The notes below the pieces were generated by a model. It saw only the letters and a program-made list of their open reading frames with translations, did not search any database and was not told the origin of the DNA. Below are positions 19,690-43,200 of a stretch of DNA of 64,000 bases, one piece after another. Position 1 is the stretch's first letter, and each line of letters begins with the position of its first letter. Source of the DNA: Podarcis cretensis (lineage: Eukaryota). The translations under genes and the position numbers were made by a program. The stretch lies in assembly GCA_951804945.1 (NCBI GenBank), contig OX638154.1, positions 47,802,001 to 47,866,000 on the forward strand, in the 5' to 3' direction.

Positions 19690-20030
19690 GGCTGTTAGGC
19701 AGACCCCCGTTTCTCTTAAGGAGCTACAGTTTTCAGGATCTCTGGGAATTGTAGCTCTGTGCAGGGAATAGGGGTATCCTAACAACTCTTACCATGCTTA
19801 ACAAACCACAATTGCCAGGATGCTTTTGGGGGGAAACCACAGATGTTTTAAAGTGGCATGGTACAGCTTTAAATGTACAGCACAGGTGGGGCCTACTAGA
19901 ATTCAAAGCAAAGCCTTCCCCTATGCATCCAAAGCACATTTCCCCCCAAAGAATCCTGGCAACTGCAACTTACCCCTCCCAAAGCTGCAAATTCCCAGCA
20001 CCCTTAACAAAATATAGTTCCCAGAGCTTT
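19690..20030. mobile_element. Palindromic DNA-transposon-derived repeat
   Basis: GGGAATTGTAGCTCTG motif with an inverted copy (CAAATTCCCAG); boundaries approximate. Confidence 0.5.
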
Positions 20031-20299
20031 GGAGGCGGGAAGGGGCAAGAATTGTGCTTTTTACATGTAGGGCTTATACAATGTCTTAGAATCCCAGGAG
20101 ACTTAAGCTGCTCCACTCCTAGGCACATTTACTCGGGAGCAATTCCCTCTCCTCAAGTCAGCAAAAGCCTCACTCGCCAGCAAAAACGACAAGGAGAAGA
20201 TGAAGAAGGAAAAAGGAGCACGAGGTCCATTTTCCACAGAAGAAGTTTGCGAGGGGGAAGAGGCGAGCAGGTGTAAACAGAGGAAGGAAAGGCAGAGCC

Positions 20300-21300
20300 A
20301 GGCGTCACGCTAAAAACCTAACAGGAATCTATGTGGTCAAGAAGCAGAAAATGGGGGGTTTTTTTAGAGGGGGGAGGCAGGAGACTCAAGAGGAGGAAGA
20401 AGAGGAGGAGGAGGAGGAGGACGGGGCAACTTGAGGCGTCTCCCCTCCCCTCTGTGGATGCTACAAAAGTACCTACCTGGCAAGAGGGGGCGGGACAGGA
20501 TGGCGCCCCGGGAGGCAGCTCAGCCTGAGGGGGGAGGAATAACTTTTGGGTGGGGGGGTTAAGAGCAAACACCGGAGGAAGAGACGCTTACCGGACCCCC
20601 TTCTGGGAGCAGCGCCGAGGAGCCCCCGCCGTCCAATGCCTTCCCAGCCGACCAACACGGGAGAGAGACGGGGAGAAGCAGTTCCCAGAGGCCGAGCCCC
20701 GCCCCTTGCTCCCCGCTCAGCCGCCCCCACCCCAAAGGAAAGCTGGAGCCCGCGACCGGACAAGCGCCGACTGGAAACTCTGGCACAGCCCGCATGCGCA
20801 GAAGAGCTCTTTCTCTCTCTCCCGGCCGCGGCGCCGCCCTCTTCAAGGGGCGAGGCTCGCCTGATGGCCCGCTCCCCGCCCGCAGCCCCAGGAGGCGGGG
20901 CGCCGACGCACTTTTGCCTAGCCTCCGGCGCTGCGCATGCGCCGGCTGCCGCTCTAGCGCCTCGGCGAGCGGGCTGGGAAGTTCGTGCTGCTGTGCGCCG
21001 CTCCTTCGGCGTATGAGGAAGTCGGCAACTGTTTCCCGGGCGGCGCAAGGTGGCGGCCTCCTCCTCCGCCTCGCCCTCCGCTTGCTTACGCGGAAGTAAA
21101 CGCGGCACGACGGGCGTTTGCTCCCCACGTTAGGGGAGGTGAAGGGGAGGGTTGCGGGGTTTTAGCGGCTTTGCTGGGAAGTATGTTGGCTTCCGCGCTT
21201 AGGATCGCACTGCGCGGGTGTTTTGGACGGTCACCATCGAGCCTGGGTTTACGCACGTTTATTCAGAAGAAAAAAATCTCTGTTTTTAGGACACTCCGCC
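20300..21300 (-). promoter_or_regulatory. STK38: STK38 CpG-island promoter and non-coding first exon(s)
   Basis: Dense CpG; NRF1 sites CGCATGCGCA 20791-20800 and TGCGCATGCGC 20932-20942; ETS CGGAAGT 21091-21097; candidate minus-strand donors CCG|gtaagc (exon end 20592), CAG|gtaggt (20477) and CGC|gtaagc (21090). Confidence 0.85.
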
Positions 21301-23540
21301 CACAGAGCTCCCAGTTAGGATGAATCGACGCCTTCATATGTGGAAAGCAAGTCAGGAAGGTTCGTTGGTTCCTCAGGGTGTTTTTCCACAATCCCAAATC
21401 CACATAAAGATTGTATTAATTTCAAAAGATCCGAGTTCTTATGCTGTGTTTCAAGAGACAGGAACACGCCTTGTTCCTGATCGTTGTACAGTTCTTCCAT
21501 TTGGCTTTCCCCTGCTTTTCCAGACATTGGAACTGCACAAATAGGGAAATAGTGATGCTCACTAGTTTTATCAGATCACACCAAAAACGTTTGCTTTTAT
21601 TGCTTGTATTGTGGCACTGTAAAAACACCATATGCCAGGTTTATTTGGCATACACCTTGTGGACTAGAGCCCACTTTGTCAGACACCTATGCCAAAATAA
21701 ATCTGTACGTAAAGTGCCAAAGGACTTGTTTTTCCTGCAAGAGGCTAGCCTGGCCACCTCTGTTGAATTTTTAAAAAACAAGAAGTTCTTTAAAACCATT
21801 TCCAGAAGAACAAAGGGCAGTATTTTACTTCAGCTCTCCCTTTGTCCTGATGATCTACTGAGACAGACACTTGAGGGAAGGACTCTAGACAATGGATGGA
21901 TTTATGCAACTAATAGAAGACTGGATATGTGCCATAAGCCGTACTCTGTGTCTACTAACCCTATGAAGAACCTCTGGTCCCTACTCGTTAATATCCATGA
22001 ATTGAGAAAGTTGATGCCCTAAAGACGAAATTTTGAAATAAGCAACCATCGCTTTGTGGTTAAGCTGAGGTGTGTATATTTGAGACTGCCCGTTGCACAT
22101 GCACAGTTGACAGCTTCAAGAATAGAAGTTGCGGGAAGCTGCAGGCATGGGAAAACCAAACGGGTACGGTCATATACATAGAGTGAAGACACCCCTGCCC
22201 CTTCTCGGATGTAAATGTGACTTGAAGGGGAGTGGGAAGAACAAATTTGCTGTGTTTTAAGCTGCTAATATGTATATAGCCTCTCATGAAAATTCCATTT
22301 CTACTTTTAAATCCACTTACAGGATAATATTATAACTCAGATGAACAGTGACAGCAAATTGTACATAGCTGTGGAAGTCCCTGTTGTTGCCAACATAGCT
22401 ATCCAGTGTTTTTTTCATTTTAATGGCATTTAATATCTTTTCCATTTTATTCAAAAATGCATAGCTATTAGCAAAATATAACCTTGCTTTATTTTATTTA
22501 GATTTCCAGCATTAATGATGTACAACATTTTGATAAATTTCATGCAAAAAACATGTATCTTAATGCGTTCTATAACACTGAGGATGGACAGTTTGTTTAA
22601 AATGGATCACTGTAAAATATGATCTATCAACATTGTATCATTATCAAAATATTATTTTAAGACAGCTTAAGCATTATATTTAAAGTAACTGAGACCTTGA
22701 ATATTTTCGGTGACCCGAATAAGAAAGCTATAGCAATACTACATATGTATTTTAGCATTTGTACATATTGTTTAACATATTATTATTAAATATGAAGGAC
22801 AAAATGTGTTCTTGCCATTTATTACTCCTTTGGAATGCACAAAGGTGGCTTTGTATAACATCTCAGCCCTGCACTTGTTGGCTTGGGAATATTCAATGGG
22901 ACTTATTTGCTAATAATTGTACTGTATTTAGAATTCTGCATTCAGAATTTTGTATGTTTCCCCAAACTAATTTAGATCTGAAATATGGCATTAGAAACTA
23001 GGAAACCAGTCTCCTTGCTCATGACAAAAATGGTATGCGAAGGCCAGATCCAGCCTCTACTTATGATAGCCTTCAGAGATTTTCCAGGGGGAAGTTGAGA
23101 TATAAAATACAAATGTATTTGCAAAAGAAAAAAACAAGCAAGCAAGAAAAAACAAACTTGTCCCACATTAAGTAATAAGACGCTCAGGCAGAGTCCCCCA
23201 AAACAAAATCTGCATGGTGGTTTAGTATCTGGTGCCTGGACAACCAAAATCTAACCAGTCTGCGATCTGCTCATGGCCAAACATTGATTATACACTGAAT
23301 GTCAGTGGTGTACAACATAACTTCATGTTGTGCATCAGTATGAGCCCATTTTAAATTGTTACATTCACCATCTGAGTAATATGGTTTCTATGTTGTATTC
23401 AGGTAGAGTAAATTAACAGCACTGTCTCTGAAAGTTGACCCTATAATTACCCACTTTCCTAGGATTGGGAGAAACCTGGATGCAGAGCTATTTAGAGACT
23501 TCCCGGGGAGCTGTATTTAACCCGCTCTTAATGCCAGTTA

Positions 23541-23895
23541 GGACGCAGGTGGCGCTGTGGGTAAAAGCCTCAGCGCCTAGGGCTTACTGATCGAAAGGTT
23601 GGCGGTTCGAATCCCTGCGGCGGGGTGCGCTCCCGTCGTTCGGTCCCAGCGCCTGCCAACCTAGCAGTTCGAAAGCACCCTCGGGTGCAAGTAGATAAAT
23701 AGGGACCGCTTACCAGCGGGAAGGTAAACGGCGTTTCCGTGTGCGGCTCTGGCTCGCCAGAGCAGCGATGTCACGCTGGCCACGTGACCCGGAAGTGTCT
23801 CCGGACAGCGCTGACCCCTGGCCTCTTAAGTGAGATGGGCGCAAAACCCCAGAGTCTGTCAAGACTGGCCCGTACGGGCAGGGGTACCTTTACCT
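23541..23895 (+). mobile_element. Full-length young Sauria SINE
   Basis: tRNA-derived head (GGTGGCGCTGTGG, GGTTCGAATCC), ACCTTT tail, 13-bp TSD TTAATGCCAGTTA. Confidence 0.95.
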
Positions 23896-24011
23896 TTAAT
23901 GCCAGTTACGTTACCAACCCTTGTGTGGAGCCTAACAGAACAATCAACATTTAGTTCTCACACATCACATTGTTTTAGGTTTAAGGTACGCAATCTGCAC
24001 CTCTTATCTAT

Positions 24012-26076: not shown

Positions 26077-26437
26077 TGGGACGCAGGTGGCGCTGTGGGT
26101 TAAAGCCTCAGCGCCTAGGGCTTGCCGATCGAAAGGTCGGCGGTTCGAATCCCTGCGGCGGGGTGCGCTCCCGCTGCTCGGTACCAGCGCCTGCCAACCT
26201 AGCAGTTCGAAAGCACCTCCGGGTGCAAGTAGATAAATAGGGACCGCTTACCAGCGGGAAGGTAAACGGCGTTTCCGTGTGCGGCTCTGGCTTGCCAGAG
26301 CAGCGATGTCACGCTGGCCACGTGACCCGGAAGTGTCTCCGGACAGCGCTGGCCCCTGGCCTCTTAAGTGAGATGGGCGCACAACCCCAGAGTCTGTCAA
26401 GACTGGCCCGTACGGGCAGGGGTACCTTTACCTTTAC
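26077..26437 (+). mobile_element. Full-length young Sauria SINE in the PTH4 intron
   Basis: Near-identical to the 23541 copy; 12-bp TSD TTTCTTATTTGC. Confidence 0.95.
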
Positions 26438-27105
26438 TTTCTTATTTGCCTACCTCTTGCTAAGAAATCTTTTCATGGCTACTGTCTAGCAAATATTATA
26501 TGAGTTTTCAGTGTTGGACTTTGAGTTTTGTTTCAAACTGGGAAACCTAAAATTCAGTAAAGATTAGCCACTGACAGATGCACAACTAACTTTAACCTAA
26601 TATATGAAAAGACAGATTACTGTACAAGCATATTAGCATTGTCGCTGTTCACATGGCTGTTTCAGGTTCTTGCATTATAGTTTCTATCCAGTGACTTTTT
26701 TGTAGTGTAAAATGAAGGTGGCATAGCTAGCTTTTATTTACAAAACCTGTCTGTTCATTATAGTACCATGGACCAAAGAGAGCCCACTGAGGGCCATACT
26801 TGGGGAAAACTCCTATCCAGTTGTGGACAGCATGAATGGGGATAGTGCCTGACCTCCCAACATCTGTGTTTGAGGGGTAGAGTGGCATAGAGGTCAGTGC
26901 AGTGCAAACACACCACCAAATGCATCGGATTGGCTCTGCCAATGCATTTGAACCATGCCGACCTCCCCACTGCCTCACCTCTCTCCTGCCTGAAACCTTG
27001 GAGAGTGGTTAGGGCTTCGCTGGACGGACCAATGGTCTGATTCATTATAAATATGTTCCTGTGTCCTATGTTAGACATGATGATGGCAGTCACATTTCTT
27101 TATTA

Positions 27106-34349: not shown

Positions 34350-35450
34350 AGAAAAGAATCAGAACTGCGGCCGCCTTAAATTCCCTTTTAAGGATTAATG
34401 GCGAGGTGGGTTCCCTCCACAATCCAGTACGGGTTCAGGTTAAAGCTGAAGCGAGAGATGCCGCGCTTCTAAAATAGGGACGCCCTTTAATACAAAGAGC
34501 TCATCCGGGAAATTTGAAAAGCGGTTGCGTCGAAGTGGAAATGGAGCAGTTGAGCGAAACCCCACCGGCCTTTAGTAAATACTGGGACACCTCCCGCCCC
34601 ACACGTTTCCACCATAAGCCCTGAGCCTCCGTGAGACACTGTCGGCCCCGCCCCACCCATTCTCTCCCCCCTCCCCGTCCCACCTATTCTCTGGTTGCCA
34701 CGGTGACAGTGGCCCGGCCTACTGGGCAATAGGAGCAGGCACTACTAAGCGAACAAGAAGCGTCAGGAAGGATCTGCTCCTTGAGGCGGAGCCGTCTCTC
34801 TGAGAAAGGGGGTAGGGCGCAAGGAACCGTCGATCACCGGAGAAGCGACGTGCAATTGGTGAGAATCCTGGTCACGTGCTAGATGGGCAGGACATATATA
34901 AACTCGGGGTGTGTAGGCGCCTTCCGCCATTTTGTCCAGTGCGACGAAGTGGGAGAGGCGGCGGAATCGAGTCTTGGCGGGAAAACGGGCGACGCAGCGA
35001 TCGAGCTCGGTGGCTGAGGGGCGAGAAGCGAGGGAGACTGCGGAGCCGACCGAAAATTAATAATCATAAAACCGTGTAGCGGTTACTCGCGAGAGTCGGT
35101 CACACTCCTGGCCCGGCCGCCGGTGAGGGAGGGGCTTGGTCGGGATGGAAGGCCTCGCGGTTGCGGCAGCGGACAAAGAGCCGCCGCCATTTTGTGTGGT
35201 TGAAGTAACGTCAGGTCTCGCGCCGGGATATTGGTCCCGGGGAGGAGATGAAAGGGGAGGCGGATTGCCTGAGCGTGAGGGGCGGCGTGGTGGGTATTAT
35301 ATGCGCAAGCTCGAGTCGAGAATTGTGAGGGCCAGAGGCCGCCGCGATGGGCGGGAAACCGCTCAGTAGTAGGCGCGCCAGTTACCCAAGGCGTAAGAAG
35401 CCCTTTTCGTCTCCTCGTGAGCGAGGAGCCTGAGGCCCACCTCAGATCAC
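34350..35450 (+). promoter_or_regulatory. SRSF3: SRSF3 CpG-island promoter and non-coding exon 1
   Basis: E-box GTCACGTG 34871-34878; TATATAAA 34895-34902; YY1 CCGCCATTTT 34924-34933 (second copy near 35184); candidate donor CCG|gtgagg at 35122. Confidence 0.85.
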
Positions 35451-35851: not shown

Positions 35852-36057
35852 ATGCATCGTGATTCGTGTCCACTGGACTGCAAGGTTTATGTAGGTAACC
35901 TTGGGAACAATGGCAACAAAACTGAATTGGAGCGAGCCTTTGGCTACTATGGACCACTACGTAGTGTGTGGGTTGCTAGGAATCCCCCTGGTTTTGCTTT
36001 CGTTGAATTTGAAGACCCACGTGATGCTGCTGATGCAGTCAGAGAACTAGATGGGAG
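35852..36057 (+). CDS. SRSF3: SRSF3 (SRp20) coding exon 1, RRM
   Basis: [68 protein letters not shown]; 206 nt. Confidence 0.98.
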
Positions 36058-36764: not shown

Positions 36765-36899
36765 AACTCTTTGTGGGTGTCGTGTCAGGGTGGAACTCTC
36801 CAATGGTGAAAAACGTAGTCGGAACCGTGGTCCACCTCCCTCATGGGGTAGACGTCCTCGAGATGACTATCGTAGGAGAAGTCCTCCACCTCGCCGCAG
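36765..36899 (+). CDS. SRSF3: SRSF3 coding exon 2
   Basis: [44 protein letters not shown]; 135 nt. Confidence 0.97.
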
Positions 36900-37628
36900 G
36901 TATTTGGGAGCAAAGAACTTGTATAGTAATGTTTGGCAGTATTACCATTTGGCATAATAGACTTTTTTAAAAATATATATATGCTTGTTTATACCTACCC
37001 AGACACAGAATTTTAAAGCATTGAATATGTGTTAGAGGGATACATTGTGTTGAACACTGACTTTTATCCTTAGGTGTCTATACCAGTTGATAGTGCCCTC
37101 TAACACGGGTTATCATCTTTCCTTCTGAAGTCTGTTCATCTTCTAGTCACTTTCTTTTTCTTCCCAGTACTCCAACTTGGGTTTTTTTTTGCTTTTCTTT
37201 ACACCATTGTTGTAAACATTGCATACAACAGCTTGGCTTTTTCACCCACTTGAGATTTTTCCACTTTAGCACAATGATGCCAGGCAGGCAACTGTTTTAA
37301 AAATGCTGAAGCAATGAACAGTTGCTTAGCTAAATCTGACAATAGTAAATCTGTTGAAATATGACCAACTTTTGAGTTATGCAGGAATAAATTTCAAAAT
37401 AAAGCAGGTTTTTACAAGTAATGCATTCTCTGACCCTGACAGATTGGTTGGGTGTTTATTAGTTGTACTTAAGGTCTTTATTTCTGCAAGGGCTGATTTT
37501 AGCCTGTTTCAGGTAAATGAAGTCCATACAAGATAAGAGAGTGAAATCTGTTCCCTTTCACTGTAGAACACAATAGGAGTATTTGTTAGCTAATAGATGG
37601 TTGTACTGATGGCTTGTTTTTCATTTTT

Positions 37629-38176
37629 NNNNNNNNNNNNNNNNNNNNNNNNNNNNNNNNNNNNNNNNNNNNNNNNNNNNNNNNNNNNNNNNNNNNNNNN
37701 NNNNNNNNNNNNNNNNNNNNNNNNNNNNNNNNNNNNNNNNNNNNNNNNNNNNNNNNNNNNNNNNNNNNNNNNNNNNNNNNNNNNNNNNNNNNNNNNNNNN
37801 NNNNNNNNNNNNNNNNNNNNNNNNNNNNNNNNNNNNNNNNNNNNNNNNNNNNNNNNNNNNNNNNNNNNNNNNNNNNNNNNNNNNNNNNNNNNNNNNNNNN
37901 NNNNNNNNNNNNNNNNNNNNNNNNNNNNNNNNNNNNNNNNNNNNNNNNNNNNNNNNNNNNNNNNNNNNNNNNNNNNNNNNNNNNNNNNNNNNNNNNNNNN
38001 NNNNNNNNNNNNNNNNNNNNNNNNNNNNNNNNNNNNNNNNNNNNNNNNNNNNNNNNNNNNNNNNNNNNNNNNNNNNNNNNNNNNNNNNNNNNNNNNNNNN
38101 NNNNNNNNNNNNNNNNNNNNNNNNNNNNNNNNNNNNNNNNNNNNNNNNNNNNNNNNNNNNNNNNNNNNNNNNNNNN
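37629..38176 (+). other. SRSF3: 548-nt N run at the position of the SRSF3 ultraconserved poison (NMD) cassette exon
   Basis: Lies between coding exons 2 and 3; flanks GTACTGATGGCTTGTTTTTCATTTTT and GAGTAAGCGGCTTA match my recollection of the human flanks; the content itself is not visible. Confidence 0.75.
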
Positions 38177-38934
38177 GAGTAAGCGGCTTATAAGTAATTA
38201 CTTTTTCTCAATCAAAGGCTGGCTGTGCATAATTTCGTGGTAACATACATATGTTGCTTGAATAAAACTTTTAAGGGTGTTAAGGAAACTTAATATAAGA
38301 AACTAAACTGCAGTATATTTGCATGTGAGATGGCAAACTACATTTAATTGCTAACTTGGTTCTTCCTTGCAAAAATCTGCCAACTCCTTTCACCTTTAAA
38401 CTGTTTTACTAACAGTTTTCGGAACTTAAAACAATTACTTTTGGGATAAACTGGGCAAACTAAGGTTCTTAGACTAAACACACTATGACATTTTAAATTT
38501 TTACATTCACAAATATGCAGTTCTAATGGTGTTTAATGGCTTTGTCACGGTGTGCGTTAGTCTTTCACTTGATACCTTATGTCCTGTTGCGGACTTTTAC
38601 CTTGCATGGGTTCCAAAATACTGGTTTATACCAATTTTGGGACTACTTGTGGGACATTAGTATAGTGTTCTAGGCAGTGGATTTAGTTGAGATGGAAGTG
38701 CTGCATTGGACAGGTTTGCTTATGACGTGGTGTTAGTTAAAGCAAACTCATGGTTGGAAGCGTGCTGATCACACTGAGTTTTTAATGCCTGAATCTTTCC
38801 ATTTTGCTGGACGATGAGTGCCATGTTATTTGGCACATTCACTGGGCCCAACAGTGACTTGACAAGTTGGGAATTGCCTCGCCCCACTAATGCTGAATTG
38901 ATGAAAATACTCACTTTTGTATTTTTGATTGTAG

Positions 38935-38973
38935 ATCTCCACGAAGGAGAAGCTTCTCCCGTAGCCGCAGCAG
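38935..38973 (+). CDS. SRSF3: SRSF3 coding exon 3 (RS domain)
   Basis: SPRRRSFSRSRS; 39 nt, AG/GT bounded. Confidence 0.96.
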
Positions 38974-39008: not shown

Positions 39009-39326
39009 AATGGGTAGGCAAACTGAGACTCAGGGGCTGGATCCGGTCCAATCACTTTCTAAATCCGGCCCGTGGACGGTCCGGGAATCCGCATGTTTTT
39101 ACATGAGTAGAATGTGTCCTTTTATTTAAAATGCACATGCGTTATTTGTGGGGCCTGCCTGGTGTTTTTACATGAGTAGAATGTGTGCTTTTATTTAAAA
39201 TGCACCTGTTATTTGTGGGGCATAGGAATTTGTTCATTTAAAAAAAAAAAATCAAAATATAGTCCGCCCCCCAAAGTCTGAGGGAAAGTGGACTGGCCCC
39301 CTGCCGAAAAAGTTTGCTGACCCCTG
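39009..39326. mobile_element. hAT-Charlie-type MITE in an SRSF3 intron
   Basis: Perfect 8-bp TSD GTCTAGAT; termini GGGTAGGCAAACT and AGTTTGCTGACCCCTG; internal ~60-bp duplication. Confidence 0.88.
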
Positions 39327-39929: not shown

Positions 39930-40016
39930 GTCCCTTTCTAGAGATAGAAGGAGAGAGAGATCACTGTCAAGGGAGAGAAATCACAAGCCTTCTCGTTCAT
40001 TTTCCAGATCTCGTAG
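39930..40016 (+). CDS. SRSF3: SRSF3 coding exon 4
   Basis: [28 protein letters not shown]; 87 nt. Confidence 0.96.
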
Positions 40017-40224: not shown

Positions 40225-40252
40225 CCGTTCCAGGTCAAATGACAGGAAATAG
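40225..40252 (+). CDS. SRSF3: SRSF3 last coding exon, stop TAG 40250-40252
   Basis: RSRSNDRK*; exons sum to 495 nt = 164 aa. Confidence 0.95.
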
Positions 40253-43200
40253 AACTTCAGGAACAGCAGTGTACAGGAAGTCATATTAGATCTGAAGAAA
40301 GGAGTATGTGAAAGGAGTATGTACAGAACATTGTTTTCTTTTAAGACTTCATAAGCTTGGTGCATTTTTAAAATGTTTTAGCTGTCAAATTTTGTTTTTC
40401 TTGTCTCTTGTAACAGGTGACAAATGTAACAGTTGTGAATCTGTATATGGTTCTGAGCAGGTCATATGAAGTGTAATAACTTGTTGCTTTACAGTGTACC
40501 CTTAAGCATAACTTTGATTTGCATTAATGTTTAGCTAATAACCTTGCATAGACTTACCAAATAAAACCTCAAAAGCCATGCAAGTGGCAAATGTTCTTCA
40601 TATAAATATTGTGTTCTGGAATCTGCAGGATCTAAACTTGAAAGGAAGTACACAACACACATGACCTTTTAATCCTGAGCATTTGCTACAATCACAAATG
40701 GGCAATCTATGCAGGGTGAGAGCAGGGTTAAAGGACAGGATAAAACCAATAGTAAGCAAAAGGGTTATGAAAGCCTTGTAGGAGCTATATGTTTTTGATA
40801 CTGTTTTACAAGTTCTGATTTATACCAGTTTAGTCAGAACTACCTTCTACCATGTAAAAGTGTAGATTAAGTTTTGTATCTTTGTGTGGATCAGTACTTA
40901 CTGCTGAAATGTGAACTGCCTAATCTGTTCATTATAGAGCAGACCAAAAGAACAGATGATTAGCTTAAAGGATTTGGGTGCATAAGGGTACATTGTAGAT
41001 GCGAAATTTTCTTATTGTGCATAAGTTGTCATGTCACTGTAAACTCTTTGAGATCTTTGGATTAAAAGTTTGGTTACAAATCGTTCTAAGTATTTAACTT
41101 TCGTATTTTGACATACTTTCGTGCAAATATAACATTCAGATGGACTTGTGTACAGTTTAATTCAAATCTGTTATTGTGAACAATTTGAAGCCATAATCAA
41201 ATTTCACTGTGTTAATATTTGGATAAAGAGCTATTCAGAGAATGTTTTATATGTAAGTAACAGATCACACATAGTTCCTTTTAAAATACCTCTTCAAATA
41301 CCTAGAGGCAATTGCCTCAGTCATCGTCTATGGTAATACATGGCTACTTACTACAACACATTCACAACAAGTTACAGTAATGATTGGCTTAGCATGCTGC
41401 ACTCCAATGAGCATTCATTTTAGTAATGAAGCACTCAAACTTGTATACCAAAAGTGAACTTGCTATGCAGGGATTCAAGTTAAGCATAAAAATTAAGCTT
41501 TGTAATGCCGACAAAGCTTTAAATGCTCTGCATTAAAACAAATGTTGCATGCAACGTTTATCCATTGGTCTTGTGCCCAGAAAATAATTGGTCTTGTGAA
41601 TTTTAGATTAAATCCATACTACTTGAATACATTTGGTTTAATTTCATTATCTAGCCTTTTAAGGAAAATTACATGGTCATCCAAAGATTGTTAATGTTTA
41701 ATATTCTATCTTAAACGGCTTCAAAAAGGGGAAATGCATGCTTCATTAAAGACTTGTCTTGCAGAGTTCCATTGTGCCTTGTCAACCTATGTGGATAAAG
41801 CATTTGTAAAAAAACAAAAAAACTCACAGCAGAATGAGCTGTTGAAGTAGGTGTCTTTTTGGGGAGACAGGCTTGGAGGGGGGCAATTGCAAACTAAACC
41901 CTATGAAAAACAACACTCAAGAAAATCCACATGAGTCGCTTTTATGTACTACCTTGAACCTTTGCACATGGGTCATATCACATTGTAACCCAGGTATCAG
42001 AAGCCTTGCTGAAAAATGTGAAGGAAGGGATATACGTAGTTAAAGCATGTCAAATTACAGAGTTAGAAGTACCTGCACTATGCCATGTAGTAAACATCCA
42101 GCTCAGTAGTTTTAGTGTGTAAGCTCCCTGTACCATAGAGGTTCTGAAACTTGTGTGAGGGGAGCACGAGATACTGCAAAGTATCAGCCCAAAAGAGTTG
42201 CACATTAAATCCTCCTGGTAAATTTATTGGTTAAAAAATGATTACCTCTGGTGGCTTCCTGATTCTTCGTGCAGTACAAATGTTTCCCTGGCAAGCTTGC
42301 ATCTGGGTCTGGTGATGCTCATCTGTGCAGGTACCTATGATGGATGTGAATTGTGCGTCCCCCCTCCAACTGTGTCCAAAACAACTGGTGTAAGCATACA
42401 AAGGGGGAAGAAGTCACATTCTCAAACTGGTATTGAAATTTAAGGGAGTTTTGGGTATAATGTGAGGTGCACATGTACTCTTCAAGGTAGCTGTCAATAT
42501 CTCATTGTCAAGGTAATTTAAGTCCACAGAGAAGTGCATCGTTCTTCACAAAATGGCAATAGTATACAAACAGCTTATTCTACTTTTTGAAGAAATTGTA
42601 CCATCAAGTGATGTTTGCTTTCTCTTGCCCTAGGCACATGGCAGCAGTTGGTTTCTTTGGATATGCGTCATAAAGTTGCAATAAACTCAAATTGCTACTG
42701 TGGGCTCCTACTGAGTAGCTAGGAGATACTCTCTAGCTGAAAAATATTTAGTTGACTGCCTACAGCAGTAATTAGGTTGCCTGTTTCTCTTGACATTGGT
42801 CAAATTACATTTTCTTTGTAGATAGATTTCCAGAACAGTTAATTGTTTTTGTTAGAGGGAACAAGGTAGTAAAGTTTAAACGGCAAAATCTGAGAAAATC
42901 TCAAATTCACTACTTCAGAGAAATGTCCTTGGTGTGTGAATATGGAGGCTTGTATCCAGTGCAGAACTAGGGATATACACTTGGGCAATGGAGCTTTTTC
43001 CCCACCAGTACCCCATGAGTCTGTACTGAGGTTCTTCCAACACTGGGTGTGTGTGTGTGTGTGTGGATTTGGGGAGGATATGTGGTTGCAGGTAAGAGTC
43101 ATGGTACACAAGCAGGAACCGACAAGCTGTCTGGACACTCACCAGAGCTTACAGTGCTGTTTTCCTTGGGTCCCTTCATGCTTGAATAATCATTGATTCA

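Follow-up and report, generated by a model that had tools for sequence, protein, structure and literature searches.

Organization of the SRSF3 locus

The stretch of DNA analysed here (64,000 nt, hereafter the window) carries an intact SRSF3 gene on its plus strand, the features of which are collected in Table 1. Splicing of its five coding exons at GT-AG introns yields an open reading frame of 495 nt that codes for a protein of 164 amino acids with an RRM and an RS tail, figures that equal those published for the human gene. The first 69 residues are identical (69/69) to the SRSF3 chains 2i2y_A and 9asq_H of the PDB (E 2e-45), whereas SRSF7 matches the same N-terminal RRM far more weakly (E 6.3e-29). 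The spliced translation of the five coding exons ends in a C-terminal RS domain and is devoid of a zinc knuckle. Comparison of the first coding exon with the animal's own genome gave two matches at E <= 1e-15 among the 28 candidates scored, namely the SRSF3 locus itself (100%) and a paralogue on contig C3 (77%). The RRM is thus closer to SRSF3 than to SRSF7 and the window holds the sole near-identical locus in the genome, which together mark the gene as the SRSF3 orthologue.

Table 1. Features of the SRSF3 gene and of its N-containing intron, in window coordinates
Feature	Position	Strand	Remarks
TATA-like motif (34895) and putative non-coding exon 1, up to the donor-like GT at 35123	34895..35122	+	In a CpG island; start and end putative
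First coding exon, with 206 coding nt and most of the RRM	35852..36057	+	PDB identity; Pfam RRM_1 E 2.1e-17
Second coding exon, 135 nt	36765..36899	+	341 coding nt up to its end, phase 2
GT-AG intron (2,035 nt) of the isoform that skips the exon	36900..38934	+	Contains the N run
AG-free U-rich stretch with branch-point-like motif	37597..37628	+	Putative upstream part of a 3' splice region
N run	37629..38176	.	Most likely the scan's own mask; putative cover over SRSF3 poison exon 4; letters beneath hidden
39-nt coding exon that follows the cassette position	38935..38973	+	RS domain
Coding exon, 87 nt	39930..40016	+	RS domain
Last exon, with 28 coding nt (40225-40252)	40225..41066	+	TAG at 40250, AATAAA at 40560, ATTAAA at 41061; 3' end putative

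Two further observations concern the 3' half of the gene. An acceptor-like AG is placed at position 40416, in the 3' UTR, and its joining to the donor at 40016 is predicted to give a protein of 156 amino acids that lacks the last 8 residues. The intron after the 39-nt exon contains an element of 317 nt (39010-39326) with imperfect inverted ends, flanked by 9-nt direct repeats and carrying an internal duplication of 61 nt (93% identity). No second copy of this element was seen within the window, and it is likely a small hAT-type DNA transposon.

Upstream of SRSF3, and head-to-head with it, a protein-kinase gene occupies the minus strand between about 5900 and 21100, with its own CpG island near 20001-22000. 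Pkinase matches were obtained in three of its exons, two of them above the Pfam cut-off, and this gene is probably STK38 (NDR1), the neighbour of SRSF3 in human. Two CpG-rich stretches (23703-23951 and 26241-26486), similar to each other and each about 250 nt long, have near-identical open-frame translations and probably represent copies of a short interspersed repeat. Some repeats of the window may be of squamate type.

The N run and its flanks

The window contains one run of N, of 548 nt, and no other N among its 64,000 bases. This run is placed inside the intron that connects the second coding exon with the 39-nt coding exon, of which 729 nt remain visible upstream and 758 nt downstream. 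The original prediction had described a single 548-nt block in the intron after coding exon 2 of SRSF3, starting at a pyrimidine tract, and both parts of this description are borne out. The 15 visible bases next to the left end of the run include 13 pyrimidines (12 of them T). A closer look at the left edge showed that the last 32 visible bases are free of AG and contain a branch-point-like motif that agrees with the consensus at five of seven positions; the acceptor AG that would follow lies beyond view.

Both strands of the window (about 63 kb) were scanned for a T-rich, AG-free tail combined with a branch-point-like motif, with thresholds that were chosen after inspection of the site. A rule of medium strength returned five clusters on the plus strand and eight on the minus strand. 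Three of the five plus-strand clusters fall in SRSF3, two of them at the real acceptors of the exons that begin at 36765 and 38935 and the third at the left edge of the N run. On the two strands together, 5 of the 12 clusters other than that edge precede evident coding exons. The looser rule gave 19 clusters on the plus strand and 24 on the minus strand. The resemblance of the left edge to a 3' splice region beyond what chance would give is suggestive only, because the thresholds were set once the site had been seen. For the same reason a count of 1 of 63,373 was discarded as a measure of significance, as a rule fitted to the site provides no p-value.

The visible parts of the intron hold 11 donor-like sites. 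The one at 38179, two bases past the N run, was considered as the 5' splice site of a hidden exon and rejected, its exonic side being mostly covered by the run. An acceptor-like AG at 37167, preceded by 17 pyrimidines in 20 bases, and a donor-like site at 37513 would bound a segment of 345 nt, a pairing that is probably due to chance.

Origin of the N run

Most likely the N run was made by the scan itself, which had exchanged stretches of the window for N ahead of the first reading. The window is known to carry such scan-made stretches and this run is the only one in it, from which its origin follows as the most likely one; so understood, the run is uninformative about the assembly. The original prediction had also proposed masked sequence rather than an assembly gap. 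Its masking part is probably right, on other grounds than those it gave, namely that the scan itself masked the window and that the run is the sole one. The non-round length (548 nt), which had been offered as a clue to the origin, was set aside, because a mask applied letter for letter preserves any length. For the scan the practical consequence is that N runs in masked windows do not count among the features of a genome and deserve no score as such.

The run could instead belong to the assembly, either as a gap or, in the version put forward by the original prediction, as the trace of a screen for contaminants at submission, in which an ultraconserved stretch resembling human sequence was taken out. 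Scan masks and assembly gaps look identical in the window, and the run does occupy the site expected for uc.189. We nevertheless regard an assembly-level origin as improbable, given that the scan is known to have masked stretches here and that the run is single. The animal's own genome, with 1.51 Gb in 51 pieces, also speaks against it, as does the state of a second locus, that of the paralogue on C3.

This paralogue (77% over 62 aa) carries a zinc knuckle and is SRSF7-like. The human SRSF7 gene holds uc.50 (PMC12660711), and its poison exon measures 449 nt (PMC12621892; PMC12809107). In the SRSF7-like locus (L001, 9,901 nt) a cassette candidate of 448 nt is in full view on the minus strand (G000:C3:17082891-17083338), with AG and GT at its ends, an in-frame stop 8 codons in, and introns of 180 nt before and 230 nt after it. 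A filter that mistakes ultraconserved elements for contaminants, as the original prediction had it, would be expected to leave N at other ultraconserved poison exons of the assembly, and the 9,901 nt of this locus contain none. The filter is thus left unsupported at the one locus examined (1/1), a small sample.

Exon 4 as the probable content of the masked stretch

We consider it very probable that the scan's mask accounts for the N run, which lies in an intron of an intact SRSF3, and that it hides exon 4, the conserved exon with a stop by which SRSF3 would keep down its own level. The presence of exon 4 under the run is a reasonable inference from four lines of evidence: the position of the run, the room within it, the splice signals at its left edge and the published conservation of the exon, the last of which carries more weight than the left-edge signals.

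Human SRSF3 exon 4 spans chr6:36599821-36600276 (456 nt; PMC10321290; PMC12621892; PMC12809107), and its length is the same in mouse. The ultraconserved element uc.189 spans chr6:36599740-36600312 (PMC12660711), so that, as computed from these published coordinates, its 573 nt divide into 81 intronic nt ahead of the exon, the 456 nt of the exon itself and 36 intronic nt behind it. By place and room alone, the N run fits exon 4: the intron that holds it follows the second coding exon, and the run accommodates 456 nt with 92 nt over, which the original prediction had supposed to be split into about 45 nt on each side. The run is 25 nt shorter than uc.189 and the two therefore do not simply coincide. 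The human gene has seven exons; six are visible or putatively placed in the window, and the N run follows the third of them. An exon at this position would have 113 codons and 2 nt ahead of it, which fits the truncated product of 124 amino acids that has been published.

The identity of exon 4 is reported as 100% between human and mouse, over 97% in birds and 91.92% in the coelacanth (PMC10321290). Names of reptiles are absent from the readable text of the supplement to that paper, and a 17-nt motif taken from the visible left flank returned no match in the paper search. The agreement of the flanks with human sequence is thus a supposition of the original prediction.

If the run is the scan's mask, exon 4 could still have been lost, broken or replaced in this lineage, with SRSF3 controlled by intron retention or by another cassette in the visible intron. 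The letters beneath the run are hidden, the visible intron offers the acceptor-like AG at 37167 with donor-like sites downstream of it (e.g. that at 37513), and the SRSF4/5/6 family offers examples of poison exons that disappeared and were acquired again, as described in PMC4379411. Loss is nonetheless highly unlikely here. The conservation documented in PMC10321290, from mammals to birds and in the coelacanth, brackets the animal if it is a reptile; loss of exon 4 is selected against in mammals; sequence resembling a splice signal persists at the left edge of the run; and sites like that at 37167 are frequent under loose rules. That the stretch acts mainly in a retained-intron or non-coding transcript of the T-uc.189 type, rather than as a cassette exon, is scarcely credible, since the mouse nuclear transcript that speaks for it (3,451 nt, with an open reading frame of 129 amino acids; PMC8329457) has, according to the same paper, an open reading frame identical to that of an annotated intron-retaining Srsf3 isoform, and its existence is compatible with cassette use.

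Proposed autoregulation and comparison with known systems

The mechanism proposed for the exon under the mask follows that described in mammals. The human gene consists of seven exons, of which exon 4 is alternative, with an open reading frame of 495 nt for 164 amino acids, a TATA box, and a proximal AAUAAA and a distal AUUAAA (PMC10321290). Skipping of exon 4 gives the full-length protein of 164 amino acids, whereas most of the mRNA that includes it, with its early stop, is degraded by NMD, a fraction being translated into the truncated protein of 124 amino acids (PMC10321290). The SRSF3 protein itself favours inclusion of exon 4 in its own transcript (PMC10321290). In the intron before human exon 4, a cluster of branch points is distributed across the conserved region (PMC5959240).

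In the gene of the window, inclusion of an exon 4 placed under the N run would bring in an early stop, with three junctions between it and the last exon, and a stop so far upstream leads to the prediction of NMD. By analogy with mammals, SRSF3 would then limit its own level in this animal through the stop-bearing exon.

The locus is vertebrate SRSF3 by every testable feature and shows no departure from the known system. With the human and mouse genes (SRp20, exon 4, uc.189) it shares the protein of 164 amino acids, the 495-nt open reading frame and the 69 initial residues identical to the PDB chains, a cassette position that follows the third exon and has room for 456 nt, a TATA-like motif, and a proximal AATAAA before a distal ATTAAA, the arrangement described in PMC10321290. 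It differs in the length of the N run (548 nt, against 573 nt for uc.189), and in that its exon, with the inclusion, decay and autoregulation known from human and mouse, is putative. Both the gene family and the predicted logic agree with the AS-NMD of SR-protein genes in ultraconserved elements, and no difference was found with respect to the accounts given in PMC4379411 and PMC5959240. Exon 4 of SRSF3 and uc.189 are already well described, with conservation reported down to the coelacanth, and the locus adds little new biology.

A possible use of the locus concerns temperature. For Srsf2, AS-NMD that depends on temperature has been demonstrated in cells of mammals and chicken (PMC7726792). 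Neither the main text of that paper nor that of a review of 2024 (PMC11346455) mentions SRSF3, and the one paper listed by a literature search for temperature and the SRSF3 poison exon in reptiles deals with Listeria infection. If the animal is, as seems probable, an ectotherm, its SR poison exons would suit a test of such temperature-dependent regulation.

SRSF7 (9G8, uc.50) is the closest paralogue and has its cassette, like SRSF3, behind the exon in which the RRM region ends. It differs in its zinc knuckle, which the protein of the window is without. At the SRSF7-like locus of the animal the cassette candidate, in contrast to the stretch covered in SRSF3, is visible, and it is placed in a much shorter intron than that of SRSF3.
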